From NCBI GenBank assembly GCA_964592195.1, contig CAZQEI010000002.1, forward strand, positions 77,240-141,239: a stretch of 64,000 nt of DNA, given 5' to 3'. The position numbers and the translations under genes were made by a program. Within the stretch, counting starts at the first letter, position 1. The number at the start of each line of letters is the position of its first letter. This document shows, one piece after another, positions 38,298-63,958 of the stretch. This DNA comes from an uncultured Gammaproteobacteria bacterium. GTDB lineage: Bacteria > Patescibacteriota > Patescibacteriia > UBA11705. Under the pieces are notes generated by a model. That model was not told the DNA's origin. It did no database searches and was given only the letters and a program-made list of their open reading frames with translations.

Positions 38298-38343
38298 AAG
38301 AGATTGCCACGCCCCTCAATTCTTTCGAGGCTCGCAAAAGAGA
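38298..38343 (+). repeat. GAGATTGCCACG-hairpin-CTCGCAAAAGAG element, copy A
   Basis: agagattgccacg-cccctcaattctttcgagg-ctcgcaaaagag; 16 nt upstream of the minus-strand start at 38282. Confidence 0.85.
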
Positions 38344-38367
38344 ATGCTATTTTGACTATCATTTTAA

Positions 38368-39009
38368 CTAAAATATAATACGATAAACAAAATCAATCAC
38401 CCACTGGAACAAGTGGCCGAAGATATTCACACCGGCAAAGTTATCTAGGATTAAAAGGAATAACAGAATAAAAGGTCCTTTGGTTTCTAGGAACAAAGCA
38501 ATGTGACTATATTTTGAAGAATTTAATAAAGCGAACAAGAACTTAGAGCCATCTAATGGTGGTAATGGAATCAGGTTAAAAACCATCAAAATGACGTTGA
38601 TAATAACTAAAATGTGCAAAAACTGAATCAACAAGTTTTCAGCTGGTAATAAACCCTGAAAAACGATTAATCTCAAAGCTAAACCGCCAAGCGTTGCCAA
38701 AATTAAATTGGAAAACGGACCGGCCATGGCGACAAGCACAGAATCTCGGCGATAGTTACCAAAATTGTAGGGGTTAAAAGGCACTGGTTTTCCCCAGCCA
38801 AAGCCGGCAATTAATAGAACTGCCATACCCAAACCGCTGATATGGGATAACGGATTTAAAGTTAATCTTCCCATTGACTTGGCCGTATGGTCGCCAAGCA
38901 AATAGGCGGCTAAAGCATGGGAAAATTCGTGAAAAGTTAAAGCGATCACAATGGCGCAAAGCCAAGCGATAAAAACGAGCGGGTCGGTGAACAAAGTTTG
39001 GATAATCAT
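38368..39009 (-). CDS. membrane zinc metalloprotease (site-2-protease/M50-like)
   Basis: 213 aa polytopic; HEFSHAL (HExxH) in the first TM region. Confidence 0.5.
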   Translation of the reverse strand: MIIQTLFTDPLVFIAWLCAIVIALTFHEFSHALAAYLLGDHTAKSMGRLTLNPLSHISGLGMAVLLIAGFGWGKPVPFNPYNFGNYRRDSVLVAMAGPFSNLILATLGGLALRLIVFQGLLPAENLLIQFLHILVIINVILMVFNLIPLPPLDGSKFLFALLNSSKYSHIALFLETKGPFILLFLLILDNFAGVNIFGHLFQWVIDFVYRIIF

Positions 39010-39055
39010 ATGATAGTTTATAAGTTAATAAGTGAGTAAGTTCTTAAGTAAAAAA

Positions 39056-39087
39056 GTCCCGCTGGGCGGGATCCCGCCTTGCGGGAC
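39056..39087. repeat. TCCCGC/GCGGGA double-hairpin element (copy 1 of 3)
   Basis: gtcccgctgggcgggatcccgccttgcgggac; related copies at 51335..51366 and 60040..60062. Confidence 0.75.
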
Positions 39088-39123
39088 AAAAAAACAAGAA
39101 AACAAAAAAACAAATTTATGAAT

Positions 39124-39163
39124 AGAGATTGCCACGTCCCGTTAGATCGGGACTCGCAAAATA
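39124..39163 (+). repeat. GAGATTGCCACG-hairpin-CTCGCAAAA element, copy B
   Basis: agagattgccacg-tcccgttagatcggga-ctcgcaaaat. Confidence 0.85.
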
Positions 39164-39286
39164 ATTATAATACTTTAGTTAATTATATAACATTTATGAG
39201 GATTTCCCAAATGTGGCGGGGTGGGACTTGATTTTTTTATGAATGGCTGTTATAGTATTAGCACTTAAATTCTAATCATAAATGAT

Positions 39287-39463
39287 ATGAGTCGAAAATG
39301 TGATATTTGCGGACGTGGTCCACAATCCTCCGTTTCGGTCAGCCATTCCAAAATTGCTACCAAACGCGTATTAAACATCAATCTTCACACTAAAAAAATC
39401 GATCAAAAGACTGTCAAAATGTGCAGTGTTTGTTTGAGAACTCGGAATAAAGCTAGTAAATAA
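39287..39463 (+). CDS. rpmB: 50S ribosomal protein L28
   Basis: 58-aa ORF below the ORF-track cutoff: MSRKCDICGRGPQSSVSVSHSKIATKRVLNINLHTKKI... matches the L28 N-terminal consensus (MSR.C...GK.P..GN.VSHA.N.TKR...PNL); C-terminal CSVC. Confidence 0.7.
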   Translation: MSRKCDICGRGPQSSVSVSHSKIATKRVLNINLHTKKIDQKTVKMCSVCLRTRNKASK

Positions 39464-39531
39464 GTTGTTACCGATATACCGATAGTTACTGATTTTACAG
39501 ATTATTACGGATTCATCACAAAAAAATAAAA

Positions 39532-39556
39532 CCCCGCTGGAAGGCGGAGTTTTTTG
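39532..39556 (+). terminator. probable rho-independent terminator after rpmB
   Basis: ccccgct-ggaa-ggcgg stem followed by agtttttt. Confidence 0.45.
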
Positions 39557-39626
39557 TTAACTTAATATTATGAGAGGTTAAATCTTTACATACCGACCAC
39601 TACGTTTACCTGTATTACAAAAATTA

Positions 39627-40115
39627 TTACATGGAGAAATGAAAAAGGTAATTATACATTAACCAAATACCCCAGGCAGACAAAAGCAGTGGCCCAAATA
39701 AAATTAAATTGAAAACATTTAATTCTGATTCTTTATACGATTTATAGAAATAATAAACAGTTACAAACAAGAAGACAAAAACACTTAACAAAATAGGTAA
39801 AATTGCAAATAATCCGGAGGGAAACATTAACATTATCCCAAGTAAAAATACTGGGACAAACAAACCCATTTTCCAGCGCCAGTGTTTATTTTTCTGAGAC
39901 CAATCCTTGTAACTGGCGGTTAATAATATTGGAACACCAAACAACGATAAAATCATTCCGCAAGCAGTAACGGGTAAAGCCCACGACCAATAATAATTTC
40001 CTGGACTCCAGAAGCCATGTTGCGTGGCAGGGAGAAAAATACTTATAAGAAAAATAGAGACTCCGATTAAAAGTGGAGAGAGAACGAGCAAGAGCAATTT
40101 ATTGTTTTGAGACAT
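39627..40115 (-). CDS. integral membrane protein
   Basis: 162 aa, four TM helices. Confidence 0.4.
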   Translation of the reverse strand: MSQNNKLLLLVLSPLLIGVSIFLISIFLPATQHGFWSPGNYYWSWALPVTACGMILSLFGVPILLTASYKDWSQKNKHWRWKMGLFVPVFLLGIMLMFPSGLFAILPILLSVFVFLFVTVYYFYKSYKESELNVFNLILFGPLLLSAWGIWLMYNYLFHFSM

Positions 40116-40120
40116 ATTTA

Positions 40121-40155
40121 AATTACGAATTTACGAATCTGTTACGAATGTGTAC
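40121..40155 (+). repeat. 35-nt direct repeat (left copy) flanking the NTase cassette
   Basis: attacgaatttacgaatctgttacgaatgtgtacg, identical at 41369..41403. Confidence 0.9.
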
Positions 40156-40164
40156 GAATTATCA

Positions 40165-40899
40165 TTATTGATTTAAATATTTTTTCAGTTCATCCACAAA
40201 CAAACTTTCATTATCGATAAAGTTTTCTTTTCTATATTTCAATGCAGTTTGAATTAAATGATCAGAAGATTCTCGCGCCGCGATTTGTTCAAAAGAATGG
40301 GTTGGCAACTCTCCTCTGTTTTCTTGTTGCATGGAAACCAACCAAAAAAATTCTTTAATTAATGTTTTAAAATCAATTTGTTTATTCTCCCATGCAGGAA
40401 TATAACCATTCAGAATAACTTTAATTTCATCTTGAATAGTTTGTTCCAAGTCTCGTTGAGGAAATTCAGCCGGATTCAAAGGCGTGCCATAAATTATTTG
40501 GCATTCATTTAACTTGGCTAACATACGGTCTGGTTTGGCACGCAAATCAGGTTGAATATCGGTAGGCGTAGCCAATTGATTATGTTCAAACTCCCATAAA
40601 GATAAAGGAATGGCCGCCACTGGTTCAATAGCTGAACCATTAAGCGCAAAGACAGCATCTTCATCTTCGTTATTTCTCACAATTGGAACCATATCCACAT
40701 CACTTCCCTCTTTCATTTCACGACGGACAAAACTGCCTTTGATATAAATAGCTATTAAATTTTCTTTCGGGACAGTGGCAATAATTAAATCACGAGCGTG
40801 TTTAACAGCTTCAATGGCTTTTGATTCGATTGGGGTAATATTTTCCCACGATTCCCAAAAGTTAAAATCCGGAATTTGAATTTGTTCAGATTGATTCAT
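40165..40899 (-). CDS. nucleotidyltransferase-domain protein (Pol-beta superfamily; ANT/Lnu-like architecture)
   Basis: 244 aa; IYIKGSFVRREMKEGSDVDMV = GS-x9-[DE]h[DE]h NTase signature, followed by a ~170-aa helical domain as in aminoglycoside/lincosamide nucleotidyltransferases. Confidence 0.55.
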   Translation of the reverse strand: MNQSEQIQIPDFNFWESWENITPIESKAIEAVKHARDLIIATVPKENLIAIYIKGSFVRREMKEGSDVDMVPIVRNNEDEDAVFALNGSAIEPVAAIPLSLWEFEHNQLATPTDIQPDLRAKPDRMLAKLNECQIIYGTPLNPAEFPQRDLEQTIQDEIKVILNGYIPAWENKQIDFKTLIKEFFWLVSMQQENRGELPTHSFEQIAARESSDHLIQTALKYRKENFIDNESLFVDELKKYLNQ

Positions 40900-40940
40900 A
40901 TAAAAATTATTTTAGACAAGTGGCAGCAATATTATAGTTA

Positions 40941-40984
40941 AGAGATTGCCACGGCCCCCGCCAGCGGGGTCCTCGCAAAAGAGT
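40941..40984 (+). repeat. GAGATTGCCACG-hairpin-CTCGCAAAAGAG element, copy C
   Basis: agagattgccacg-gcccccgccagcggggtc-ctcgcaaaagag; stem changed to ccccg/cgggg. Confidence 0.85.
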
Positions 40985-40990
40985 GTATTA

Positions 40991-41365
40991 TTATTTACAA
41001 CGTTCAACCAAGCGCAGAGATTGTTCGGTGGTCATTAGAGGGGTGATTATTTTTTCCAATTCAATTCGTTTATCGTCCGGCAAATTTGCAAGTTTACCAG
41101 TGATAGCCGTCATCACACGTTCAACGATAAAATTGATAGTATTGCGCGTGATAGATTCTTTATCGCGAATTGGTTCATCATTAATCTTAATCTCTGGTAA
41201 TACAGCGATTGAATCAGCCCAATCATCGAGTTGTTGACGATAAGGTTGACGAATTTTGTCGTATTCAATATCAAAAATAAACAACGCCCCGAAAATAACA
41301 TTCATCGTTTCTCGTTCACGACGACGTTGTTCGAGCAATTGTTGGCGGATTGGATCTTCATTCAT
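40991..41365 (-). CDS. hypothetical protein (second gene of the NTase cassette)
   Basis: 124 aa helical ORF; ATG sits just inside the right direct repeat. Confidence 0.35.
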   Translation of the reverse strand: MNEDPIRQQLLEQRRRERETMNVIFGALFIFDIEYDKIRQPYRQQLDDWADSIAVLPEIKINDEPIRDKESITRNTINFIVERVMTAITGKLANLPDDKRIELEKIITPLMTTEQSLRLVERCK

Positions 41366-41368
41366 ATA

Positions 41369-41403
41369 ATTACGAATTTACGAATCTGTTACGAATGTGT
41401 ACG
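41369..41403 (+). repeat. 35-nt direct repeat (right copy) flanking the NTase cassette
   Basis: Identical to 40121..40155. Confidence 0.9.
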
Positions 41404-41463
41404 CCATATCATTCGATATGGCTGTCATGTCGAATGACATGACGAATTATTAATGTGGAATAA

Positions 41464-42264
41464 TTATTTATTAACAATGGTTTGTCGTTTATTTTTAATG
41501 TGATGATAAACAAACCAAGTGCCGGCGATCAACAATAGGACGGCAACGGTGATGGTGAAATATTCGGTATAATGACGAACCGTGGCCCAATTTTTTCCAA
41601 GGATCCAACCAAGGTAAGTTAAAAACGAATTCCACAGAGTTGCGCCAATTAAAGTATAAACAATAAATTTACTTAACTTCATTTTCCCCATACCAGCAGG
41701 CAAAGAAATCAAATGACGAACAATAGGGATGAAACGGCTTATAAAAATAGTTCGCTCCCCTCTTCGAGCAAACCAATGTTCAGTTTTTTGTAAATCTGTG
41801 GCATCCAACAAAAAGTATTTCCCAAATTTATTTACAAAGCGATGGCCGCCGTAATAACCAATATAATAGGAAAATAAGGAACCGATAATGCTTCCTATTG
41901 AGCTAAATAATATTACCAGCCAAACATTTAAGTTACCCTGAACAGCAAGAAATCCGGCGAAGGGCATGACTAATTCTGACGGCACAGGAAAGATCATGCT
42001 TTCCATTATCATTAACAATAAAACTCCTGGGTAACCAAGGTATTCAATAATGCTTGAGATTAATTGACCGGCGTGAGTAAGAGATTGGATAAGGAGGGAA
42101 AGCCAGTTGGGGGGTAAGAAATAAAAAAAGAAAACAAGAAAGCAAAAAAGCAAGGCAACACCTGTAAGAGGAACTGATTTTCGCGTAGGACGAGGCCAAA
42201 CGCGCCATGGACCACTAGGTCGTTGGCGAAAAAAAGAAATAAATGAGTTTAGATGTTTTTTCAT
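41464..42264 (-). CDS. DedA/SNARE-associated family membrane protein
   Basis: 266 aa; LLLMIMESMIFPVPSELVMPFAGF matches the DedA core motif. Confidence 0.6.
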   Translation of the reverse strand: MKKHLNSFISFFRQRPSGPWRVWPRPTRKSVPLTGVALLFCFLVFFFYFLPPNWLSLLIQSLTHAGQLISSIIEYLGYPGVLLLMIMESMIFPVPSELVMPFAGFLAVQGNLNVWLVILFSSIGSIIGSLFSYYIGYYGGHRFVNKFGKYFLLDATDLQKTEHWFARRGERTIFISRFIPIVRHLISLPAGMGKMKLSKFIVYTLIGATLWNSFLTYLGWILGKNWATVRHYTEYFTITVAVLLLIAGTWFVYHHIKNKRQTIVNK

Positions 42265-42330
42265 TTGATTAATATGTTTAAGTGACTAGTGAATAGTGAC
42301 TAGTGACCAGGAACTAGTACATGGAATTTA

Positions 42331-42834
42331 TTATTTAATTAAATCGGCAACGAAATATTTGGTTAGTAAATTCCAGGCGAAGTTGGAGTGGATGGCGGCA
42401 AAGACGGCGGAACTTTCTCCTCCGCAATAATCATAAATTTTTTGCTTTCCACCCGGATGGTTACCAATATAGGTTGTCACATTATAAACTTTGCTGTTTA
42501 CAATTAAATAACAATCATTGGGTGAATTGTGCGCTGAAACTTGCGCTGCAGTTAATCCCGCGGCTGGTGCTGGTGTATTTACGACTGGATTAGGTTTATT
42601 AACTGGAGTATTTACAACTGGCGCTGGTTTATTAGTTGGAGTATTAACTGCAGCGACTGGTTTATTGACCGGCGAGTTAACTGGCTTAGTTGGTTGATTG
42701 ACGACTGAATTATTCACTGGTGGATTATTAAGTGAGATTGACGTTGGATTCAAGTTAACGCCAAAACCCACACCGATCAAACCAGCAACAATGACTAAAA
42801 AGATAACTAACACGAGCCAAGTAATTTTTTTCAT
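42331..42834 (-). CDS. secreted or membrane-anchored cytochrome b5-like heme-binding protein with Pro-rich linker
   Basis: 167 aa; N-terminal TM/signal; PVNKP/NTP repeats; C-terminal YNVTTYIGNHPGGKQKIYDYCGGESSAVFAAIH matches the cyt b5 HPGG heme-binding motif. Confidence 0.5.
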   Translation of the reverse strand: MKKITWLVLVIFLVIVAGLIGVGFGVNLNPTSISLNNPPVNNSVVNQPTKPVNSPVNKPVAAVNTPTNKPAPVVNTPVNKPNPVVNTPAPAAGLTAAQVSAHNSPNDCYLIVNSKVYNVTTYIGNHPGGKQKIYDYCGGESSAVFAAIHSNFAWNLLTKYFVADLIK

Positions 42835-44690: not shown

Positions 44691-44696
44691 ATTAAA

Positions 44697-47846: not shown

Positions 47847-47893
47847 AGAGATTGCTTCGTCACCCCGCTAAGCGTGGTTCCTCGCAAATGAGG
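47847..47893 (+). repeat. GAGATTGC-hairpin-CTCGCAAATGAG element, copy D (divergent)
   Basis: agagattgcttcgtcaccccgctaagcgtggttcctcgcaaatgagg; 20 nt upstream of the NOX-like gene start. Confidence 0.7.
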
Positions 47894-48393: not shown

Positions 48394-48426
48394 AAAATAT
48401 TGCGCATTACTGCGGTAAATGTTATT
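48394..48426 (+). repeat. 33-nt direct repeat (left copy)
   Basis: aaaatattgcgcattactgcggtaaatgttat; identical copy at 49061..49093. Confidence 0.9.
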
Positions 48427-49075
48427 TAGCTGAAACTTTTAACGAAGCATGATCAGGATCAATTTCAAATTTTACATTTCCTGTTTCTAATGCTTTTTTC
48501 ACTGAATCCAACATTGCCAACTCATCTTGAGCTTGTTTTCTATATCTTTCCAAAGAATCTTCATATCTTTCCGGATTCGCTTGCATATCTCTCAAAGTGT
48601 TTTCTCGTGTCGCTCGCATATAGGCCTCAACTGTCCGCGCCACCGCTTTCTTCTCATCAACAGTCACTCCTTGCCATAAATCCTGACTTGTTTTTTGTTG
48701 CTCATCTTTGGCAGGTAAAAAACGGTACAATTTGGGACGGAGAGGCTGGACGCTATATCTAATCCGAGAAGAAATAGTTGAATCTAATTTTTTCGGAATT
48801 ATATTTATATCGATCCAAATACCATAAAATTTATTTGCGCCCATTAACCCGGTAAATTCAACTTTTTCATAAGCGTCAATACTCTCAATAGCATGCCCGC
48901 TATGTTCTATAATCTTCGCCAAGACACCACTACCTTTTAACATAAGAAAAATAATACCTGCCGCACGGTTACATTTTTCTTCCTCCGTGGCCTGCGATTC
49001 TAAGCCTTGGCCTAAATTTTTAAAAACATTATAAAAACTCTGGACTGGATTCTTCATAATAAAAATATTGCGCAT
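48422..49075 (-). CDS. hypothetical protein
   Basis: 217 aa; exactly bracketed by 33-nt direct repeats; the annotated ATG lies inside the right repeat. Confidence 0.4.
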   Translation of the reverse strand: MRNIFIMKNPVQSFYNVFKNLGQGLESQATEEEKCNRAAGIIFLMLKGSGVLAKIIEHSGHAIESIDAYEKVEFTGLMGANKFYGIWIDINIIPKKLDSTISSRIRYSVQPLRPKLYRFLPAKDEQQKTSQDLWQGVTVDEKKAVARTVEAYMRATRENTLRDMQANPERYEDSLERYRKQAQDELAMLDSVKKALETGNVKFEIDPDHASLKVSAK

Positions 49076-49093
49076 TACTGCGGTAAATGTTAT
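49061..49093 (+). repeat. 33-nt direct repeat (right copy)
   Basis: Identical to 48394..48426. Confidence 0.9.
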
Positions 49094-49311: not shown

Positions 49312-51360
49312 ATGGAATTTAAGCTAAAATCTGATTACAAACCAGCTGGGGATCAACCAAAAGCGATTGATCAACTGATTTTTGGTTTGGGAAAGAAGCA
49401 ACGGCATCAAACTTTGTTGGGCGTCACCGGTTCAGGCAAGACGTTTACAATTGCAAATGTAATTAACAAAGTGCAAGAACCAACGCTAGTCATTGCCCAC
49501 AATAAAACGCTGGCTGCTCAGTTATGTAATGAATTTCGTGAATTCTTCCCAGAAAATGCGGTCGAATATTTTGTTAGTTACTATGACTATTATCAACCCG
49601 AAGCTTATATTCCTTCTTCCGATACTTACATTGAAAAAGAATCACAAATTAACGAAGAGATTGATCGACTGCGCCATGCCTGCACACAGTCTTTACTTTC
49701 ACGAAAAGATGTAATTGTTGTAGCGTCAGTTTCCGCGATTTACAATCTTGGTTCACCTCGGGAATATGAAAGCGTACTATTACACTTTGAGCAAAATCAA
49801 AAAATCGATCGGCGCGAAATGTTAGAAAAATTGGTAGCCATGCAATTCAATCGAACGAACAGTGACTTGTTACGTGGCACTTTTCGATTAACCGGCCAAA
49901 TATTGGAAGTGATGCCAGTAAATGAAGAAACCATTTTCCGATTTGAAATTGCAGAAAAAATTGTTAGTATTGAAAAAATCGATCCAGTTAGTCGCAATGT
50001 CATTACCACTGTTCACGATGTCTGGTTATTCCCAGCTAAACATTATGTTTTAAATCCCGACGTACGTGATCGTGCGTTTGAAAAAATCAAAGGAGAATTG
50101 GATGAGCGTTTAGTAGAATTCAACAAAGAAGGTAAATTGCTGGAAGCTGAAAGATTAAGCCGCAGAACACGATATGATTTGGAGATGATTAAAAATGTAG
50201 GCTTTTGCAGTGGCATTGAAAACTATTCTTTATATTTTGAAGAACGAGAACGCGGCACTCCCCCATTTACATTATTAGATTACTTCAAAGAGTGTTCTCC
50301 GGATTTTTTAACTGTGGTCGATGAATCGCACGTGACATTACCGCAAATTCGCGGCATGTATTTTGGTGACCGCTCAAGAAAAGATACTTTAGTGGAACAT
50401 GGTTTTCGTTTACCGAGCGCCAAAGATAATCGACCGTTAACCTTTGACGAATTCCACGAACGAGTTAACCAAATGATTTTTGTTTCTGCCACACCAGCTG
50501 ATTTAGAATACAAAATTTCCGATCAAATCGTAGAACAAATCGTTCGTCCAACTGGATTAATTGACCCAGAAGTAATTATTAAACCAGTAACAGCAGATCA
50601 AAATAGTCCATCCCAAATTGATGATTTAATGGATCGCATTCATGATCGTGTTGAGAAAAATGAACGTTGTCTGGTTACAACATTAACTAAAAAGATGGCC
50701 GAGGATTTAACTGATTATTTAAAAAAGAAAAACATCAAAGTCAGTTATTTGCATAGCGACATTGATACGCTGGAAAGAATTCAAATCATCACCGATCTTC
50801 GTAAAGGAGAAATCGAAGTCATCGTCGGGGTTAATTTACTGCGTGAAGGTTTAGACATGCCTGAAGTTTCGTTAGTGGCTATTCTCGACGGTGACAAAGA
50901 AGGTTTCTTGAGAAATGATACTAGCTTGATTCAAACCATCGGACGCGCGGCGCGTAATGCGAACGGACAAGTATTAATTTACGCTGATAGAATTACTGAT
51001 TCAATCAAACGTGCACTAGAAGAAACCAATCGTCGTAGAATTATTCAATTACAATATAATAAAGATCACGGGATAACGCCGAAGACGATTGAGAAAGCGA
51101 TTAAGAATATTCTTGAGGAATTTGGGCTGACTGCTGGGAAGAATAAAGAAAGAAAGCAAGAAAACAAGAAAACAAATAACGCATTGAAAATTGAATTAGA
51201 AGTGGACAAGAGACCGGTGGCGGAAATTATTAAAGAAAAAGAAAAGCAGATGAAAGAGGCGGCGAAGGCGTTGGAGTTTGAGTTGGCGGCACTGTTGAGG
51301 GATGAGTTGCGGGAGTTGAAGAATAAGAAAGCAAGTCCCGCAAAACGGGATCCCGCCTAG
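49312..51360 (+). CDS. uvrB: excinuclease ABC subunit B
   Basis: 682 aa; GVTGSGKT Walker A, helicase motifs, beta-hairpin, C-terminal UVR domain; the last 9 codons lie within a repeat element. Confidence 0.95.
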   Translation: MEFKLKSDYKPAGDQPKAIDQLIFGLGKKQRHQTLLGVTGSGKTFTIANVINKVQEPTLVIAHNKTLAAQLCNEFREFFPENAVEYFVSYYDYYQPEAYIPSSDTYIEKESQINEEIDRLRHACTQSLLSRKDVIVVASVSAIYNLGSPREYESVLLHFEQNQKIDRREMLEKLVAMQFNRTNSDLLRGTFRLTGQILEVMPVNEETIFRFEIAEKIVSIEKIDPVSRNVITTVHDVWLFPAKHYVLNPDVRDRAFEKIKGELDERLVEFNKEGKLLEAERLSRRTRYDLEMIKNVGFCSGIENYSLYFEERERGTPPFTLLDYFKECSPDFLTVVDESHVTLPQIRGMYFGDRSRKDTLVEHGFRLPSAKDNRPLTFDEFHERVNQMIFVSATPADLEYKISDQIVEQIVRPTGLIDPEVIIKPVTADQNSPSQIDDLMDRIHDRVEKNERCLVTTLTKKMAEDLTDYLKKKNIKVSYLHSDIDTLERIQIITDLRKGEIEVIVGVNLLREGLDMPEVSLVAILDGDKEGFLRNDTSLIQTIGRAARNANGQVLIYADRITDSIKRALEETNRRRIIQLQYNKDHGITPKTIEKAIKNILEEFGLTAGKNKERKQENKKTNNALKIELEVDKRPVAEIIKEKEKQMKEAAKALEFELAALLRDELRELKNKKASPAKRDPA

Positions 51361-51366
51361 CGGGAA
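51335..51366. repeat. TCCCG/CGGGA double-hairpin element (copy 2), forming the uvrB C-terminus and stop
   Basis: gtcccgcaaaacgggatcccgcctagcggga encodes ...SPAKRDPA*. Confidence 0.8.
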
Positions 51367-51529
51367 AAGCAATAAAGCAAAAAACAATTCCATACTACGG
51401 AAAAGATGGATTGGAATTAAGAATTAGGAATTAAGGGGAAAAGGATTAGCGACTAGGGACTAGGAATTAGGTATGAGGTATGTTGGATGAGGTACTGGCG
51501 GCTAGGGGCATGGGATGATTGACTTAATT

Positions 51530-51570
51530 GAGATTGCCACGTCCCGATAAATCGGGACTCGCAAAAGAGG
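51530..51570 (+). repeat. GAGATTGCCACG-hairpin-CTCGCAAAAGAG element, copy E
   Basis: gagattgccacg-tcccgataaatcggga-ctcgcaaaagagg; followed by TTGACA-17-TAAGAT. Confidence 0.85.
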
Positions 51571-51660
51571 TAGTCTAAAAAATTGACAAAGACGGTGGAA
51601 TTAAATAAGATAAAGCCAAGTTCTTTAGCAACCAATAACCACAAACCAAAGGAGATCTTC

Positions 51661-52230: not shown

Positions 52231-52237
52231 AAAATAA

Positions 52238-52413: not shown

Positions 52414-52992
52414 TTATACCGGGAACCACTGATTCATCTTGCGAGCAATAGCGCACAAATTTTGTAAGACAACTTCTTTCTCGTTGATCAATTGGAATCT
52501 GATTTTGTAATCACCTTCTTCGATCAGCTCACCACCTTCGATTAATGGCACTGCAAATCGTCTTAAATAATTCATATCACCGCAAAACCGACGATGATAA
52601 TTAATGACTTTCGGACTCTCAGTCAAGCTCATTAATTCTATAGATACATTGATAGTCAGTGTATGTATCAGTTTTCTCTCATCTGTTTCAGCCTTCACTT
52701 CAACAATAATTATTTTGCCCAGCAAATCAACATAGTCGGTATATTGCTGGCATCCAAGATCTTCGGCCGAATAAATAGCGGGAAAACCAAATTCGTTATC
52801 ACACAAATAACGTTTATCGAAATCTTGAAGAGTGTAAAAACCCAAATGTCCGACTACAAATCGCTGTTCAAAAAATTTTACCAATTCAGCGACATCAACC
52901 GGACAATAATGTTCGTGGGAAATACAAACATTTTCATCCTCAAATGTCATGTCGCACTTATTACAGAGGTGGACGACCTTTTTATTGGGCAT
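52414..52992 (-). CDS. hypothetical protein with N-terminal zinc-finger-like motif
   Basis: 192 aa; CNKCDMTFEDENVCISHEHYC. Confidence 0.4.
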   Translation of the reverse strand: MPNKKVVHLCNKCDMTFEDENVCISHEHYCPVDVAELVKFFEQRFVVGHLGFYTLQDFDKRYLCDNEFGFPAIYSAEDLGCQQYTDYVDLLGKIIIVEVKAETDERKLIHTLTINVSIELMSLTESPKVINYHRRFCGDMNYLRRFAVPLIEGGELIEEGDYKIRFQLINEKEVVLQNLCAIARKMNQWFPV

Positions 52993-53115
52993 GGTTTATG
53001 TCCTTTGTTAATGAGCAAGGGTATCTTATAGTTAAAAAAACAAAAAAGCAAGAAAACAAGAAAGCAAAAAAATAAAAAAACAATACAGGGCTACCGATGC
53101 TACTGATATTTATTT

Positions 53116-53154
53116 GAGATTGCCACGTCCCGCTTTGCGGGACTCGCAAAAGAG
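53116..53154 (+). repeat. GAGATTGCCACG-hairpin-CTCGCAAAAGAG element, copy F
   Basis: gagattgccacg-tcccgctttgcggga-ctcgcaaaagag. Confidence 0.85.
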
Positions 53155-53219
53155 TGAAAATAGGAAAATACACCCCTTGGAATAATAAAAAAAATCCCGA
53201 GATTATCGGGATGATTTAA

Positions 53220-54928: not shown

Positions 54929-54975
54929 GTGTCGCCCTTCGAGGGTTTGCTCATCGCAAACCACCTCAGGGTGAC
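54929..54975. promoter_or_regulatory. long imperfect palindrome ending 9 nt before a TTGACA-17-TAATAT promoter
   Basis: tgtcgcccttcgagggtttg-ctcatcgc-caaaccacctcagggtgaca; second copy at 56963..57014. Confidence 0.65.
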
Positions 54976-54984
54976 ATTATATAA

Positions 54985-55013
54985 TTGACAATAAGGCAAA
55001 GGTATATTAATAT
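54985..55013 (+). promoter_or_regulatory. sigma-70-like promoter (TTGACA-17-TAATAT)
   Basis: attgaca-ataaggcaaaggtatat-taatat upstream of 55082..55963. Confidence 0.5.
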
Positions 55014-55081
55014 GCAATATTGCCTGTAAATTGACAAATGAACCAACAACAACAACGCCGTGAAGGCGTGGAGGAGGTCGC

Positions 55082-56857: not shown

Positions 56858-56962
56858 AAATTTAACAGCTGGAAATCGGCTGTTTTTTCATTACGGATAT
56901 ACGGATTTGTTACCGATATTACCGATTTTACTGATTACTGAGGTGGGAGCGATGGATGGGAT

Positions 56963-57014
56963 TGTCGCCCCTCGAGGGTTTTGTCCTTTGGTCAAAACCA
57001 CCTCGGGGTGACAA
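56963..57014. promoter_or_regulatory. long imperfect palindrome (second copy) ending 8 nt before a TTGACA-17-TAAATT promoter
   Basis: ttgtcgcccctcgagggttttg-tcctttggt-caaaaccacctcggggtgacaa; both arms carry the same extra T relative to copy 1. Confidence 0.65.
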
Positions 57015-57022
57015 TTTGCGCA

Positions 57023-57051
57023 TTGACAAAAATGGCAAAATTGGATAAATT
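57023..57051 (+). promoter_or_regulatory. sigma-70-like promoter (TTGACA-17-TAAATT)
   Basis: ttgaca-aaaatggcaaaattgga-taaatt upstream of the HAD gene. Confidence 0.5.
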
Positions 57052-57095
57052 AATTATTACAAACTGTTCTTTCAATCCAACAAAAAGGAGAGAGG

Positions 57096-57920: not shown

Positions 57921-58132
57921 TCAATCGTTGAAATGAAATTCTAAGCACTAAATCCCAAATTCTAAAGTTGGAATATTATTTAAAAAAAACGAAAGCTCAA
58001 AGAACAAAAAACCATCAAACGATGGTCTTTTTATTTATGCAAAAATTTATGATACTAGATCCACCACTGATCAATTACTATTCTTTTCTGGGTCTGGGGT
58101 GAAAGGAATGGATAGGATGGTTTTTAAACAAT

Positions 58133-58534
58133 TTAATTGATCGCTTTCATGGTGTATTGGGCAGTGATTTTTTGGAGTCGGTCGAGATGTTCGTTTTCCA
58201 AATTTTCCAAGGTGGAATAGAAAGATTCGTAGATAACAGTTTTTTGTTTAATATCAAACGGGTCAATTTTACGTAAACTTTTTTGTAATGCTTCATCAGC
58301 CTGAGCTTTGCGATCTTCGATTTCATTTTCCAATTTAACAATTTCATTATCAAAAGCAAGAACCAAATCATTGTATTGTTCACCGCGACGAGAAAGTTCG
58401 TCGGCCAACAGTTCATCAAAACGATGATAAAACTCATCAGTTTCTCCGACACTATTCAACAAACCGACTAATTCAATTTTATCCTTATCATTAAGAAAAG
58501 ATGATTGTATAAGTGTAATTAATTCGTTATTCAT
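58133..58534 (-). CDS. hypothetical coiled-coil protein
   Basis: Start moved to the MNNELIT Met at 58534, 4 nt after the upstream stop; the ORF-track start at 58627 would overlap the upstream gene by 89 nt. Confidence 0.35.
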   Translation of the reverse strand: MNNELITLIQSSFLNDKDKIELVGLLNSVGETDEFYHRFDELLADELSRRGEQYNDLVLAFDNEIVKLENEIEDRKAQADEALQKSLRKIDPFDIKQKTVIYESFYSTLENLENEHLDRLQKITAQYTMKAIN

Positions 58535-58538
58535 ATAA

Positions 58539-59441
58539 TTATCTTTTAGCTGGGTGATGAGTAATTTTACTGTTAGCTCGACGGGATTGAGCCGCATGGT
58601 ATCCACTGGCAGGAATATCATACACAACTAATTTCCCAGCCTTCCAGGCTATCAAACCTAAATATTTAGCAATTCCAGTTGCTACATTTCCAATTAACTT
58701 AAATGGTCTTAATGTATTAAACTGTTTTATTAAATCAATTGGTCCTTTCCAAAAAGTATGTGACAATAAATCCCAACCACTGGTTTTAATATTTTCAACA
58801 GCTGAACTACTCAACTTCATTCTTTCAATTCCCTTTTCATGACATTTCATCAAGTCCGTATATTGCATAATCTTTTGCATATCAGCGGCGATTTCAGGAT
58901 GAGTAGTTAAAATAGTTGGGATGTCGTCTCCATTCGCACTCATTTCTGTTTGCAAACGACCAACTATTTCTTGCATATTAGCAACATCTTGAGAGATTTC
59001 ACTAACTCGCATGTCTAATCGATGAGATTTTTTTGATGATTTATCGAAATCAGGAAACTTATCTCCCATCATGGATTGCATATCTTTTTTCACCCCTGAT
59101 CGATATTTATCATCAATGGTCGGCGGAACAAATGGCCTAAAATCATAACTTAAATGCGGATCATTCTCAAGTCCTTTGACATTATTCTTCCCCATTAATA
59201 ACACTTCTAAATCAACCCTAGTTTGTTTCCACCCCTCCGCCTTCGGACCAAAATATCGTCTAGGCAAATGACCTAAGTCTTCCATAAAAACTCTTTTACC
59301 AGCCTCATCTTCATTTATTCTTAATCTGCGAATATGTTCTTTTTGACGTTTTTCAAAAGAAGCTACTCTGGGAGTAAAAATAGACTTAGCCGCATTAGAA
59401 GCCACTTCACCTACTTTATCTAAAAATCCACCTGGAGCCAT
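58539..59441 (-). CDS. hypothetical protein
   Basis: 300 aa; no recognisable motif. Confidence 0.4.
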   Translation of the reverse strand: MAPGGFLDKVGEVASNAAKSIFTPRVASFEKRQKEHIRRLRINEDEAGKRVFMEDLGHLPRRYFGPKAEGWKQTRVDLEVLLMGKNNVKGLENDPHLSYDFRPFVPPTIDDKYRSGVKKDMQSMMGDKFPDFDKSSKKSHRLDMRVSEISQDVANMQEIVGRLQTEMSANGDDIPTILTTHPEIAADMQKIMQYTDLMKCHEKGIERMKLSSSAVENIKTSGWDLLSHTFWKGPIDLIKQFNTLRPFKLIGNVATGIAKYLGLIAWKAGKLVVYDIPASGYHAAQSRRANSKITHHPAKR

Positions 59442-59620
59442 ATTTTTGTATATTAACTATATTTATATTATAACACAATTTTAAGAATAAAGCAAGATTA
59501 GCGATTAAACTTTAGAGAGTTGGAATTATGAATTAAGAATTAAGGGATTAACAACTAAATATCACTGACGATATTATACCATATTTTGATAAAATAAAAA
59601 AATTGCGCAGAATTACGCAA

Positions 59621-59908
59621 TTATTGATAGTCAATTTTCCATTCGAAAACACCTTGGTAGGTGGCGCGCTGGATACACAGTGGGTTAATTGAAAAACCTC
59701 TTTTTACCAAAGCATTCACAATAGCTCCAGCTAAAGTGGCAGATACTCCCCTTTTATAAGCGCAAAAAACCATTCGTTCTTCTAAGGCAGTTAATTCCAA
59801 ACGAACACAACATTCATCATTTTCCAGTAACTGTCTAGTAATTTTTTCTCCAATGTCTACGGTACTTAAATTCAGTAATTTCAACGGGCGACCGTTTAGG
59901 ATGGCCAT
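59621..59908 (-). CDS. hypothetical small protein
   Basis: 95 aa. Confidence 0.35.
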   Translation of the reverse strand: MAILNGRPLKLLNLSTVDIGEKITRQLLENDECCVRLELTALEERMVFCAYKRGVSATLAGAIVNALVKRGFSINPLCIQRATYQGVFEWKIDYQ

Positions 59909-60039
59909 TCTGTTCTCCTTAGGGTTGTAGTTGAATTACTGATCTACGGATTACTACGGATACTACAGATAAGACATCAAATAAATGAACTAATACGAAT
60001 ATATTAGATTATTATAGCGAGATAAGCAAGTTCCGCAGA

Positions 60040-60062
60040 GACGGGATCCCGCCTAGCGGGAA
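60040..60062. repeat. TCCCGC-cta-GCGGGA hairpin element (copy 3, truncated)
   Basis: gacgggatcccgcctagcgggaa. Confidence 0.7.
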
Positions 60063-60114
60063 AAGCGAGATCAGCGAGATAAGTATTGAATATTATTAAA
60101 ATAAAAAATTATTA

Positions 60115-60143
60115 TCAAAAAAGTCCCCAGCGATATGGGGACA
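60115..60143 (-). terminator. rho-independent terminator (gtcccc-N8-ggggac with T-run on the minus strand)
   Basis: aaaaaagtccccagcgatatggggac; the same hairpin recurs at 61145..61172 and 63001..63025. Confidence 0.7.
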
Positions 60144-60172
60144 GTCTTTCATTTTTAATAAGTCGTATTCAA

Positions 60173-60976
60173 CTAGTTATCTTCACGTTTCTCCAAACCC
60201 TGGATCCTGCCTGTAGGTCGGAAACCACCGCGAAGATCTTCAGACGGTCCTAGATGGTAGCATTTAGGTTCATCTTCACACTCTTCGTTGAGTTCATTCC
60301 AAATCATCTTACCGCGACAGCGACACTCCGCTTTCTTGGTGTCCCAAGTAGCACCTGGGCAACGAGGTTCACACAATTCCCGAGATGTCGACCACTTGGT
60401 AGACGGATCTTTGCAACGAGATTCACACATCAATGATTTCCCGTTAAAAATCTCACTTTGCAAACACTTCGCCGGCCTCGAATAGTCAGCCTTCTTCAAG
60501 TCGATCAGTTCCTGAACAGACAAACAAAGCTTGTATTCAGAGGAAAAGACCTTTCCCTGTTCGCACTCGCAAGAATTGGTCGTCTCTACATATTGCTGCG
60601 CTGCCGGACAAATCTCGTGGCACTTATCATGTTGCCAAGTAAAACCTGCTTTACAAACAGAAACGCAAGATTTGGTTCCCGAATCCCACTTCTTACCTTC
60701 AGTAGAATGGCACAGAGGAATACAAAGATTTACATTATCCTGCATCATATCTGGCCTAAATCCCTCACGACATGTCGGCCGACATTGACCGCTGGAACCG
60801 TGATAAGAATCATTATAAGCATAGTATGTCTGACCTTCAGGACACTTTCTGAGAGATGCACGATAGTCTGAATTCATCTTATTCAGCTCATCCACCACGG
60901 ATCTATCATAGTAATAACCACCAGCGCACTGGCTCATGACCATGAGAGAGACGATCAGGACAAGGTGACGTAGCAT
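60173..60976 (-). CDS. secreted Cys-rich protein (EGF/furin-like Cys repeats), GC-rich gene
   Basis: 267 aa; signal peptide MLRHLVLIVSLMVMSQCAG; more than 30 Cys in C-x-x-G-x-x-[WY]-like repeats; AAGGAGG RBS; local GC about 50%. Confidence 0.55.
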   Translation of the reverse strand: MLRHLVLIVSLMVMSQCAGGYYYDRSVVDELNKMNSDYRASLRKCPEGQTYYAYNDSYHGSSGQCRPTCREGFRPDMMQDNVNLCIPLCHSTEGKKWDSGTKSCVSVCKAGFTWQHDKCHEICPAAQQYVETTNSCECEQGKVFSSEYKLCLSVQELIDLKKADYSRPAKCLQSEIFNGKSLMCESRCKDPSTKWSTSRELCEPRCPGATWDTKKAECRCRGKMIWNELNEECEDEPKCYHLGPSEDLRGGFRPTGRIQGLEKREDN

Positions 60977-61079
60977 GGGGACCTCCTTGGCCGTCAGGCC
61001 GTCAGTTGGGGATGTGCCGAGCCTGAGAAACGGAAAACATCACTAAAACACGTTAAATTTTCAAGTTACAAGACACATA

Positions 61080-61108
61080 ATTATAGCACATACTTATAAT
61101 AAAGTCAA
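61080..61108 (-). promoter_or_regulatory. consensus sigma-70 promoter TTGACT-17-TGTGCTATAAT
   Basis: Minus strand reads ttgact-ttattataagtatgtgc-tataat; lies within a ~100-nt cassette repeated at 62888..62990. Confidence 0.7.
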
Positions 61109-61144
61109 TCATTTTGTATAATATTTTGCTTATTTTAAATGTAA

Positions 61145-61172
61145 ACAAAAAAGTCCCCAGCGATATGGGGAC
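61145..61172 (-). terminator. rho-independent terminator (same hairpin family)
   Basis: aaaaaagtccccagcgatatggggac downstream of 61221..62285. Confidence 0.7.
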
Positions 61173-61220
61173 TCCCTTTCAAGGTAGTTAAACAATTAAG
61201 AACAGGATCAGAACGACAAG

Positions 61221-62285
61221 CTACTTCGGGACACAGGTGTCGGTAGCGTCGTCGTACTTGCCGTTCGGGCAGGGCGGTTCTTCATGAGAGCACAGCTCGT
61301 AGACCGCGATGCCCTGGTCCTCTTCGACCTGGCAGAGGAACTCGCGGATACAGCTGGTCGAAAACCGAGCAACACGACACATCGCGAGTCCACCATCTTC
61401 CGTCAGATTGAAAGAGATACTACGGTACCCCTCCCAAACCGGGAAATCCCACCTAGTGACGAAATCCGTCTGGTTGTCGTAGGTCAGCTTCAGCTTCTTC
61501 CCTCCGAGGAACGCCCACACGGTGCGACCGTTCACGACCACGAACTTGTAGGCGCTGAGGCCGTTCATGTTCGGCCAAGCCTCATAGGACGGGCTGGCCG
61601 CGTTCGCGAACGCCGTGACCGTCGGGTGGGAGGTGTCGAGCCTCCTGAGGTTCTTGATGTACCGGAAGCCCTCGACGTCCTCGTCGCAGACCTTGTAGAT
61701 CTGGACGGAGTTGTCCCACATGCGGCTGACGGCGCACAAATCGGTGTTCATCGCGCCGAACGAACCGTGGAACCGGCCCTTGAAGTTCTTCTGGTACGAG
61801 AACTTCAGGTTGTGCTCATCGATTACCTCGGGGTTGGACTCCTTGAGGGAAGGATCAACGGAGTTGTAGGACGCGGTCCAGATGACCACGTCGGACAAGC
61901 CCTTGAACACCGGCAAGTAGGCCCTGCCGCCCTCTTGTTCATCATCGTAGAACCTGGCCTTGACCCCCTTGCTGGGGAGGTAGACCCAGAGCTCTTCGCC
62001 GTTCACGAGGACGAACTGGTAGTCGGCGATGTCGAGCGACTCGGTCCAGACCTTGTAGTAGACTTCCTTCGCGATCAGGAAGTCACCGACCTTGGGGTAC
62101 TTCTGGTACCGGCAGTCGTCGAGGCCGGGCCACGAGTCGGTGTCGCCGCAGAAGCCGTCATGGTCCGGATCGGACTGGCCTTCCTGGCAGATGCCGAGCA
62201 TGCACAGACCGGCGGTGGCGACGGACGGGAACGAGAGCGCCACGAGCGCGAGCACCAGAGCCGAGAACAGGGAGCGACGCAGCAT
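61221..62285 (-). CDS. secreted protein with internal duplicated module, high-GC gene
   Basis: Start set at MLRRSLFSALVLALVALSFPSVATA (signal peptide), preceded by ggccAAGGAGGtcccc identical to the RBS context of 60173..60976; two copies of an IYKVCDEDVEGFRY / AVYELC module; GC about 60%. Confidence 0.55.
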   Translation of the reverse strand: MLRRSLFSALVLALVALSFPSVATAGLCMLGICQEGQSDPDHDGFCGDTDSWPGLDDCRYQKYPKVGDFLIAKEVYYKVWTESLDIADYQFVLVNGEELWVYLPSKGVKARFYDDEQEGGRAYLPVFKGLSDVVIWTASYNSVDPSLKESNPEVIDEHNLKFSYQKNFKGRFHGSFGAMNTDLCAVSRMWDNSVQIYKVCDEDVEGFRYIKNLRRLDTSHPTVTAFANAASPSYEAWPNMNGLSAYKFVVVNGRTVWAFLGGKKLKLTYDNQTDFVTRWDFPVWEGYRSISFNLTEDGGLAMCRVARFSTSCIREFLCQVEEDQGIAVYELCSHEEPPCPNGKYDDATDTCVPK

Positions 62286-62361
62286 GGGGACCTCCTTGGC
62301 CACAAAGGCCGTGTGTGGGGACACCAGCAACCACTAAATTGATTACTGGAATAATTCACAC

Positions 62362-62829
62362 TTAGAATTCCTGACACACAAAGCAACCTCGATCCTCATT
62401 CTTTGTTTTATACATGCGACAACCAAGACGAGGTGTATTCAATAATCGATAGCTTTCATCCGCAATCTGCTGATGCCAGGGTTTACGAAAATGTTCATTC
62501 ACGTCGTAAACATATTGTTCTTGTTCTTTCGAACTGCAAACAACAGAAAACTGCTTACCAGATATATTTCTCCATTTGGTAAAAGCCCCATTTGCATGAC
62601 TGACTCCATATTCTTCAACTGCGGCATAAAAAATATTATAATCACGATCATCCTCAAGGGTGCCCCAACAATCAGCTACCAAGTCAGCCAGGGCTTCTGA
62701 CATAACATGATCACGCTGGATATCCAGAGCATCATATTCCGATGGGGAATTACAGGCCTGATTGCTATTTTCCAGTGGAGCAGAACAACCCAGAAGAAGA
62801 ACGAACAGCACCAACCATGACAATCGCAT
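62362..62829 (-). CDS. putative lipoprotein
   Basis: Start at MRLSWLVLFVLLLGCSAP (lipobox LLGC) with AAGGAGG RBS; 155 aa; directly upstream of 61221..62285. Confidence 0.45.
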   Translation of the reverse strand: MRLSWLVLFVLLLGCSAPLENSNQACNSPSEYDALDIQRDHVMSEALADLVADCWGTLEDDRDYNIFYAAVEEYGVSHANGAFTKWRNISGKQFSVVCSSKEQEQYVYDVNEHFRKPWHQQIADESYRLLNTPRLGCRMYKTKNEDRGCFVCQEF

Positions 62830-62931
62830 GTTGACCTCCTTAGCCTGATGGCTAGAGTTGAGTAGGTTTAGGATCCTAGAGAACAAAAATGTCACTAAAA
62901 CACGTTAAATTTTCAAGTTACAAGACACATA

Positions 62932-62960
62932 ATTATAGCACATACTTATAATAAAGTCAA
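62932..62960 (-). promoter_or_regulatory. consensus sigma-70 promoter TTGACT-17-TGTGCTATAAT (second copy)
   Basis: Identical to the promoter at 61080..61108. Confidence 0.7.
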
Positions 62961-63000
62961 TCACTCCGTACTAAATTTTGCTTATTTTAAACAATAATTT

Positions 63001-63025
63001 AAAAAGTCCCCAGAGATACGGGGAC
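63001..63025 (-). terminator. rho-independent terminator (gtcccca-gagatac-ggggac)
   Basis: Third copy of the hairpin terminator, downstream of 63074..63681. Confidence 0.65.
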
Positions 63026-63073
63026 TTCCTTTCAATGTAGTTTATCAATTACGAACAGGAGAGGGACGGCGAG

Positions 63074-63681
63074 CTACTTCGTCTCGGGGGGAGGAAGCGG
63101 CTCGTCGTAGCACTCGACCGGCAGGGACGCGTAGTACTCGAAGACCTTGAGATCCTCCTGGCAGACCTCGTAGATCTCGACACCTTCGCGACTGGCGACC
63201 GAACACATCTGGAGGTTGGTCTGCCCGATCTCCGATCGACCGCAGTTGTGGGTCTTGCGGTAGGTCATGAGGACCTTGCCAGGCTCGGGGTTGAACTCGA
63301 TGGTATTGACCCCGACGAAGACCGGGAGCACGAAGATCGTCTCGTCTGCCCGCCTCTGGTCGACCGGGATCACGAACGACATGAGGCCCACGTTGAACCA
63401 CATGCGCTCGCCGCCGTCGGTGACGACGAGGTTGAGCTCGCCGAGTCGCCGGTTGATCTCGTCGTTGCCCTTGGGCCACTCGCCCTTGGCGGAGATCTGG
63501 AACAGGCACACGATGTCACCGGCCTCACAAGCCGGGGGGAGAGAGATCTCTCCTTTCGGCCCGATGATGGCCAGCCCCCCACACTTGGCGGCGGGGGTGA
63601 AGGCCACCCACACCGTCACGAACAGTGCCGCGAGCATCGCACCCAGGGTCAGAGCCTTTTCCTTGCGCGAATAGATCTTCA
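63074..63681 (-). CDS. secreted or membrane-anchored protein, paralog of the C-terminal module of 61221..62285, high-GC gene
   Basis: Start at MKIYSRKEK with cgAAGGAGGattgg RBS; N-terminal TM/signal LTLGAMLAALFVTVWVAF; C-terminal IYEVCQEDLKVFEY matches IYKVCDEDVEGFRY; GC about 60%. Confidence 0.5.
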
Positions 63682-63834
63682 TCCAATCCTCCTTCGTCCA
63701 GCGACCAAACGCCAGACATTGCGCACCATCTCGAACCAGAACCAGCACTGCCTGAGAACCAGAGCGCGATGCGATCCCAGCCGAAGCCGGGAGTTATGGA
63801 TTTATTGACGTAAAAGATCAATTACTAACCGTTC

Positions 63835-63863
63835 ATTATAGCATGTTTTATAATAAATGTCAA
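63835..63863 (-). promoter_or_regulatory. sigma-70 promoter TTGACA-17-TGCTATAAT (third copy, diverged cassette)
   Basis: Minus strand reads ttgaca-tttattataaaacatgc-tataat. Confidence 0.6.
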
Positions 63864-63920
63864 TGGGTAAAAATGGCAAAATGGCTTATTTTAGATAAAA
63901 ACAAAATATTATACTCACTC

Positions 63921-63958
63921 AGAGATTGCCGCGCCCCGATGCGGGGCTCGCAAAATAG
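63921..63958 (+). repeat. GAGATTGCCGCG-hairpin-CTCGCAAAA element, copy G
   Basis: agagattgccgcg-ccccgatgcgggg-ctcgcaaaatagg; stem switched to ccccg/cgggg. Confidence 0.85.

Follow-up and report, generated by a model that had tools for sequence, protein, structure and literature searches.

Seven copies of a dispersed DNA hairpin in a Patescibacteria chromosome, probably a CGTC-type REP family linked to small GIY-YIG nucleases

We analyzed a stretch of 64,000 nucleotides (hereafter the window; contig CAZQEI010000002.1 of assembly GCA_964592195.1, positions 77,240 to 141,239) from an uncultured bacterium that GTDB places in the Patescibacteriota, and in it an element made of a conserved sequence GAGATTGC-NN-CG, a variable hairpin and a second conserved sequence CTCGCAAA, present in exactly seven copies. 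We propose as the probable explanation that these copies represent a dispersed family of DNA hairpins, similar to repetitive extragenic palindromic (REP) sequences of the CGTC-tagged type, which is the recognition motif of small GIY-YIG nucleases named Ssn. The element is repeated and structured, its inner stem covaries, its fold favors one strand, and its relatives occur across phyla in tight linkage with genes coding for Ssn homologs. The feature is therefore real, structured and selected, and it most likely belongs to the known class of CGTC-type REPs and Ssn-related motifs, beyond the published definition of the motif. It is thus not a new kind of element. The original prediction had named a match to a known element as an outcome that would refute it, and the literature does contain one that accounts for the class (PMC3733652, PMC11893778).

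An oriented hairpin in the window and in other genomes

By searching the window with the pattern GAGATTGCNNCG-N(8-30)-CTCGCAAA, we found matches at 38300, 39125, 40942, 47848, 51530, 53116 and 63922, all on the plus strand and all between 38.3 and 64 kb, compared to 0 in 100 shuffles. This agrees with the original prediction of seven copies in one orientation and in the accessory half only, apart from starts that were off by 0-2 nt. Both conserved 12-mers of the element are over-represented in the window. A covariance model, the check proposed together with the prediction, was run unfiltered on the window and returned the same seven copies at 37-41 bits and no eighth; the runner-up reached 13 bits at 3217-3294 and covers the tail half only. 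Relaxed mismatch scans for degenerate copies gave 62 matches in the window versus ~44 in shuffles, that is noise. Intergenic DNA amounts to ~5.0 kb in the first 38 kb (no copy) versus 4.0 kb in the remainder (seven copies), and by our own estimate the confinement of the copies beyond 38 kb has a p of about 0.003. Their common orientation has a two-sided p of about 0.016. All seven are singletons, without dimers.

Then, we scanned one genome per species (596 Gb) with the exact pattern and obtained, among the matches listed, at least 118 stretches with 136 elements. They span Chloroflexota, Bacteroidota, Omnitrophota, Cloacimonadota, Ignavibacteriota, Nitrospirota, Proteobacteria and several Patescibacteria (stretches L034, L042, L060 and L081). 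Across these phyla, 20 bases conserved as in the window surround hairpins that vary. With 18 fixed bases and a gap of 23 possible lengths, we estimate that ~400 matches are expected by chance in 596 Gb, so that family membership needs extra features. Two such features were found. First, GAC directly follows CTCGCAAA on its 3' side in ~80% of cases (G in 107, A in 103 and C in 115 of the 136 listed elements). Second, the NN positions are TT in 79, CA in 24 and CG in 22 listed elements (125/136 together), which are the same three variants as in the window. As judged from these shared bases, matches bearing GAC and one of the NN variants of the window are real relatives, and the ~20% without GAC, for instance in Synechococcus and Altiarchaeota, may be due to chance. 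The tag of the listed elements is CGTC in 57 and TGTC in 61 of the 136.

Read on the purine-rich strand, which is the minus strand of the window, the element has the form 5'-(Y)GTC-W-TTGC-GAG-[center]-CG(A/T)R-GCAAT-CTC, where the center often contains tandem G.A. Structure statistics were computed on an alignment of 69 family sequences (A1). First, the outer stem TTGC/GCAA is invariant, and so is the C after the palindrome (GCAAT-C), which is also present in 7/7 window copies. Second, the outer stem is followed by a junction in which G13 pairs with C35 in 69/69 sequences, A12 is opposite G36 in 67/69, and G11 is opposite A in 36, T in 22 and C in 11. Third, the five inner pairs all change on both sides: 84% of the cells pair, versus 70% in shuffles (0/500) and 20-57% in slid controls, and the covariation score of the inner helix is 0.21 versus 0.055 in shuffles, with 0.21 reached by 0/500. 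Most of the unpaired inner cells are tandem G.A/A.G (jointly 21/69), which can be formed by the purine-rich strand alone.

The two purine mismatches (G.A/A.G), which are invariant, suggest that a single strand folds, and the purine-rich strand is more stable than its complement in 229/252 elements. When folded as single-stranded DNA (ssDNA), five of the seven window copies form the same two-tier hairpin (z from -1.9 to -4.2), copies 1 and 4 being weak (0.2 and -1.3). Together these data indicate that the hairpin is kept by compensatory change and that the fold belongs to the purine-rich strand. They bear out the compensatory changes that the original prediction had read from the window hairpins themselves, which are as it quoted them (tcccg/cggga with differing loops, ccccg/cgggg in copies 3 and 7, cctc/gagg in copy 1).

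Linkage to genes for Ssn-type GIY-YIG proteins

The first description of Ssn nucleases dates from 2025; no site-specific enzyme cutting ssDNA only had been reported before. SsnA of Neisseria, a GIY-YIG protein of 94 aa, binds the NTS repeat CGTCATTCCCGCGMAVGCGGGAATCYRG as ssDNA and on one strand only, cuts a few bases upstream of NTS and is inactive on double-stranded DNA (dsDNA) or RNA (PMC11893778). Binding to NTS depends critically on the C that follows the palindrome, and cleavage on the three bases that precede the palindrome; the Ssn system reduces transformation by NTS-bearing DNA, and homologs with their own motifs are widespread (PMC11893778). In a 2026 preprint, SsnA serves merely as a benchmark.

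By clustering all-against-all the open reading frames (ORFs) around the 136 listed elements, we found a sole recurrent neighbor, a small GIY-YIG protein, in stretches L014 and L026. In L014 its gene is decayed and lies between two copies of the element; the L026 protein (P0121) is 100 aa long and matches PF01541 only. As a test from the protein side, we analyzed 80 metagenome loci carrying relatives of P0121, with flanks of up to 3 kb. Strict copies of the element were present in 36/80 of these loci, nearly all within 350 nt of the GIY-YIG gene, and the covariance model gave 281 matches in 71/80 loci. Sequence up to 100 nt from the gene holds 2.26 elements per kb and sequence more than 800 nt away 0.01 per kb, which is a more than 200-fold enrichment. 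In N. gonorrhoeae, a 94-aa SsnA homolog, whose gene has nine canonical NTS repeats around it, shares 48% identity with P0121 (E 3e-31). Searches of PDB and NCBIfam with the GIY-YIG protein returned weak UvrC-type matches only.

On a plasmid of Planktothrix agardhii (L207), the Ssn gene is flanked by a motif TGTCATTCTGAG..CGAAGAATCTC with a covarying outer stem. This motif shares its tag, its GAG/CGAA junction and its CTC tail with our element, but its outer stem is TTCT/AGAA instead of TTGC/GCAA, at this one locus only. Another motif class, TGTCATCCCGAGG.., adjoins an Ssn gene in Spirosoma (L206). Comparison of these sequences indicates that there are probably many Ssn motif classes beyond the published pattern. 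In L150, eight tandem copies with a period of 109 nt lie next to an Ssn gene (70-1192).

By analogy with Neisseria SsnA and NTS, the active form of the element would be the purine-rich strand as ssDNA, to which the nuclease would bind once it is folded; the strand asymmetry seen above (G.A pairs, greater stability of the purine-rich strand) supports a strand-specific action on ssDNA indirectly. The frame would consist of the 5' tag (GTC in the family, CTC in the window), the 4-bp TTGC/GCAA stem, the G.A / A.G / G-C junction, the free hairpin and the (T)CTC tail; its invariant parts would be recognized, and the center would have only to pair. Cutting would take place a few bases 5' of the tag when the strand is exposed in DNA uptake, replication or repair, and would affect the recombination of flanked segments. 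The window copies would then be orphan singletons bracketing accessory genes. We infer that the genome to which the window belongs encodes an Ssn enzyme and that this enzyme binds or cuts the seven copies; how the copies spread is likewise a matter of inference.

Several observations weigh against this explanation. First, the linkage to Ssn was demonstrated mainly among Flavobacteriaceae-like relatives of P0121, and no GIY-YIG gene was found within the 64-kb window, including by Pfam searches with neighboring ORFs. Second, the published SRM pattern HGTCWYN(0-2)YYVSBRHN(0-5)WNVSBRGN(0-2)RNCYNB, which matched the NTS control, fits 0/263 elements and none in the window, so that the assignment as an Ssn motif rests on the linkage analysis and not on the published definition. 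Third, the tag of the window copies is CTC in five (as NCTC in 5/7), CTA in one and TTA in one, and lies one base further from the stem than the GTC of the family. Since cleavage in Neisseria is controlled mainly by the three bases upstream of the palindrome (PMC11893778), such CTC-tagged copies may be bound but uncut, or may serve a diverged enzyme. Fourth, as regards mobility, we saw no clean empty site among the loci compared and no target-site duplication at the seven window junctions. Fifth, the copies run 7/7 in the same direction with the purine-rich strand being the transcribed strand of most local genes, which leaves room for an effect at the RNA level.

Comparison with known repeat classes and competing explanations

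Like NTS and SRM repeats (PMC11893778), the element is an oriented hairpin repeat of 30-45 nt with a 5' YGTC tag in the family, an A/T-footed stem and a C after the palindrome. It is likewise dispersed in intergenic DNA and, in the family, accumulates on either side of genes that encode single-domain GIY-YIG proteins of ~95-100 aa. However, the sequence is TTGCGAG...GCAATCTC here and ATTCCCGCG...GCGGGAATCY in NTS, and the architecture has two tiers, with an invariant G.A/A.G junction and a free inner hairpin of 4-40 nt, whereas NTS has an 8-bp stem and a 4-nt loop.

A broader claim can be made only tentatively, namely that the element represents a major cross-phylum class of Ssn motifs missed by the SRM definition, with a G.A core and a freely variable nested hairpin, and that its CTC-tagged form in Patescibacteria marks the borders of accessory blocks. 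If so, the motif and its cognate nuclease could govern which incoming or replicating single strands recombine at accessory blocks; alternatively, the CTC copies of Patescibacteria could be decoys, bound and not cut. Patescibacteria are thought to depend on DNA uptake. What the analysis itself shows is that a very widespread motif class, TTGCGAG...GCAATCTC, is tied to Ssn genes, is missed by the published search pattern and extends to Patescibacteria. The recognition surface appears to be the conserved G.A junction, tag and tail around a free hairpin, and each Ssn pair of motif and enzyme is a potential ssDNA tool.

CGTC-tagged REPs have a terminal CGTC, TGTC or CCTC, an A/T stem foot and a short tail, form mostly head-to-head dimers and have no dedicated transposase; they occur in Proteobacteria, Chlorobi, Bacteroidetes, Spirochaetes and Thermotogae and include dRS3 of Neisseria and RPE-4/-6 of Rickettsia (PMC3733652). 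Our family has the same tag, an A/T foot (TT/AA), an unpaired 3' tail and no dedicated transposase. Among its close pairs, head-to-head is the commonest arrangement (27, with 13 tail-to-tail and 18 head-to-tail), and the window copies are all single. It is also intergenic with occasional in-frame copies inside genes. In stretch L060 (Doudnabacteria), a copy at 3434-3472 lies inside a uvrC-like ORF of 610 aa (2427-4256) without interrupting the reading frame, reminiscent of the insertions of REP/RPE elements into repair genes that Di Nocera et al. noted (PMC3733652). By contrast, CGTC REPs have perfect stems of 8-9 bp, loops of 4-5 nt and a CCA tail; in our element an outer stem of 4-5 bp is followed by purine mismatches, a variable center of 4-40 nt and a CTC tail, the comparison with CGTC-1 to -4 being by description only. 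A full-text search of the literature for the conserved 11-12-mers returned unrelated primers only.

The element further resembles GTAG REPs and REPINs in being a short dispersed intergenic hairpin, in forming dimers and in flanking a gene for a small nuclease-type protein. GTAG REPs are recognized as ssDNA by REP-associated tyrosine transposases (RAYTs), but our element is without a GT[AG]G tag and its partner superfamily is GIY-YIG, not HUH/Y1. It could still be a non-autonomous transposon functionally unrelated to Ssn, that is a REP/REPIN moved by a RAYT or a miniature inverted-repeat transposable element (MITE) moved by a DDE transposase. Such an origin would suit a dispersed intergenic hairpin with head-to-head dimers elsewhere and a lineage-specific presence, and CGTC REPs are stated to have no transposase of their own (PMC3733652). 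We nonetheless consider it quite improbable: besides the lack of the tag, no Y1 (HUH) or other transposase was recurrent near the 136 listed elements, where the GIY-YIG gene is the only recurrent neighbor, and there are neither terminal inverted repeats beyond the hairpin nor duplicated target sites at the seven window junctions, on which grounds a MITE was rejected. The second alternative of the original prediction, a REP/MITE-like mobile hairpin, was close to the answer. Its supposed preference for 5' regions was not seen, as more of the 136 listed elements (window included) lie between convergent genes (11) than between divergent ones (5).

The original prediction viewed the element in the first place as a promoter-proximal operator or leader-RNA module, which our data do not support, from copies 16-125 nt upstream of minus-strand start codons with a TATAAT/TAAATA-like hexamer after them. 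The distances are roughly right for six copies (17, 115, 42, 21, 123 and ~100 nt), but copy 5 lies between plus-strand genes, and the placement upstream of starts arises because the copies are intergenic in a region where 23/28 genes are on the minus strand. As an operator, the flanks would be bound as dsDNA by a transcription factor controlling the downstream minus-strand genes. The six copies 17-123 nt ahead of starts, the A/T-rich hexamers after some of them and one predicted promoter just upstream of copy 2 (39210-39182, minus strand) would fit this view. However, the promoter scan gave no consistent -35/-10 arrangement, and promoter-like sites (66 versus 52.8 +/- 6.6 in shuffles) are not clearly enriched and have inconsistent positions. 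Moreover, the flanks are neither a palindrome nor a direct repeat, a covarying variable hairpin is unnecessary for binding to duplex DNA, the spacing to the start codon is inconstant, and the downstream genes are functionally unrelated. Finally, in other genomes the listed elements occur in either orientation relative to neighboring genes (25 in the (-,-) and 23 in the (+,+) context), and such random orientation argues against a promoter, operator or leader role. We thus regard the operator as very improbable.

An RNA-level cis element, that is a purine-rich hairpin acting within minus-strand operons as an mRNA stabilizer, a processing site or a protein-binding site, seems somewhat less remote, yet unlikely. 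Such mRNA roles have been described for some REPs. In the window, 6/7 copies have their structured strand in the sense direction of the genes that flank them, copy 1 lies inside an operon, and some positions are compatible with G.U pairing (G11 opposite T37 in 22/69); also, many REPs are transcribed, as Di Nocera et al. suggest (PMC3733652). On the other hand, the 25 versus 23 split elsewhere and copy 5, which is antisense to both its neighbors, do not fit with a role in mRNA, and the nuclease tied to the family acts on ssDNA and does not bind RNA. Rfam at gathering thresholds reported only four tRNAs in the window and, at E up to 5, nothing that overlaps the hairpins, in line with the original prediction, which had found no known ribozyme or riboswitch match. 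One sub-threshold match to SscA (39046-39133, 30.3 bits for a gathering threshold of 60) reaches just the first 9 nt of copy 2. The hairpin has no U-run after it and so does not qualify as an intrinsic terminator: the terminator scan of the window called none of the copies, and T-runs are absent downstream of them on both strands.

In other genomes, the direction of the element does not follow local GC skew either (59 versus 56), on which ground a replication-strand bias was rejected. No family-wide rule thus accounts for the 7/7 co-orientation in the window.

The seven copies and their genomic surroundings

The window is part of a bacterial chromosome, from a member of the Patescibacteria (CPR) related to Falkowbacteria, with a block coding for S12-S7-EF-G-EF-Tu-S10 on the minus strand, four tRNAs and a G+C content of 36-41%. 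A megablast of the 36-60 kb region against a phage collection gave no match. The M50 protease encoded between copies 1 and 2 shares 66-69% identity with proteins of Falkowbacteria/Patescibacteria, and the order L28 - M50 - S12 - S7 - EF-G is common to the Falkowbacteria relatives. Since the syntenic Falkowbacteria loci have 0 copies of the element within 13-20 kb around the same genes, the abundance of the element in the window is lineage-specific.

The structured strand of all seven copies is the minus strand, and the genes that flank them are mutually unrelated (M50 protease, nucleotidyltransferase-like, ferric-reductase-like, ASCH-domain, uvrB and several ORFs without Pfam match). Copy 1 (38300-38342) reads CTCTTTTGCGAG-CCTCGAAAGAATTGAGGGG-CGTGGCAATCTC on the purine-rich strand and scores 37.0 bits with the covariance model, with a weak DNA fold (z 0.2). 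It lies 25 nt past the stop codon of the M50 gene (stop at 38368) and 17 nt ahead of the start of a 316-aa ORF (38282), hence inside an operon. Copy 2 (39125-39164; TTATTTTGCGAG-TCCCGATCTAACGGGA-CGTGGCAATCTC; 40.3 bits, z -3.3) is located between the start of the M50 gene (39009) and the divergent L28 gene (39287). Copy 3 (40942-40983; CTCTTTTGCGAG-GACCCCGCTGGCGGGGGC-CGTGGCAATCTC; 40.1 bits, z -1.9) is found 7 nt past the stop of the ORF 40991-41365 and 42 nt ahead of a start at 40899. Copy 4 (47848-47892; CTCATTTGCGAG-GAACCACGCTTAGCGGGGTGA-CGAAGCAATCTC; 39.1 bits), which has CGAA like the majority of the family and a weak fold (z -1.3), separates an ASCH-domain ORF from a ferric-reductase-like ORF.

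Copy 5 (51530-51569; CTCTTTTGCGAG-TCCCGATTTATCGGGA-CGTGGCAATCTC; 41.0 bits, z -4.2) stands between two plus-strand genes, uvrB (end at 51360) and the next ORF (start at 51583 or 51660), and is antisense to both. Copy 6 (53116-53154; CTCTTTTGCGAG-TCCCGCAAAGCGGGA-CGTGGCAATCTC; 41.4 bits, z -3.2) has a terminator-like hairpin at 53194-53212 on one side and, on the other, T-rich octamer tracts upstream of a start at 52992. Copy 7 (63922-63958; CTATTTTGCGAG-CCCCGCATCGGGG-CGCGGCAATCTC; 39.7 bits, z -2.5) is near the end of the window.

The repeat also creates spurious plus-strand ORFs, at 38164-38355 (..RDCHAP..RGSQK..) and 39079-39231 (..RDCHVP..RDSQ..), an artifact of a type known for this repeat class. 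For annotation, the element explains common spurious small ORFs and calls for caution toward promoter or riboswitch readings of such repeats.

Other repeats lie in the same region. Tracts with an 8-nt period (GTTTTCTT/GCTTTCTT on the minus strand) occur at 39086-39117, 42112-42160, 51134-51190 and 53026-53090; the first and the last are just upstream of the minus-strand starts 39009 and 52992, the two others are inside the ORF 41464-42264 and uvrB, and all may be promoter tracts similar to UP elements. A terminator-like double hairpin GTCCCGC..GCGGGA-TCCCGCC..GCGGGAC, flanked by A/T runs, was noticed at 39045-39108, 51324-51387 and 60041-60066; its core resembles the NTS core TCCCGC/GCGGGA of Neisseria and the inner hairpins of copies 2, 5 and 6. 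A 46-nt repeat with four TTACGAAT-like units, 93% identical between its copies at 40121-40166 and 41368-41413, is each time immediately upstream of a minus-strand start (40115 and 41365). As a shared operator or promoter, this repeat is more plausible than the hairpin element.

A perfect 32-nt direct repeat, AAAATATTGCGCATTACTGCGGTAAATGTTAT, at 48394-48425 and 49062-49093 brackets a 217-aa ORF (48422-49075), and the pair may represent the boundaries of a cassette or of a duplication. Between the S12 gene and the 316-aa ORF, two 48-nt copies with runs of the heptamer (TTGATCA)n lie 108 nt apart (37147-37302). The end of the window (60000-64000) has a G+C content of 49-52% versus 35-42% elsewhere, ORFs without Pfam match, a duplication of ~200 nt (61034-61228 and 62886-63081) and hairpins AAAAAAGTCCCCAGCGATATGGGGAC at 60107, 61137 and 62990, and has the appearance of a foreign or repeated block of genes. 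In the first half of the window, a tRNA-Ile gene with the anticodon TAT (14250-14326), an uncommon way to read AUA, adjoins two tRNA-Val genes.

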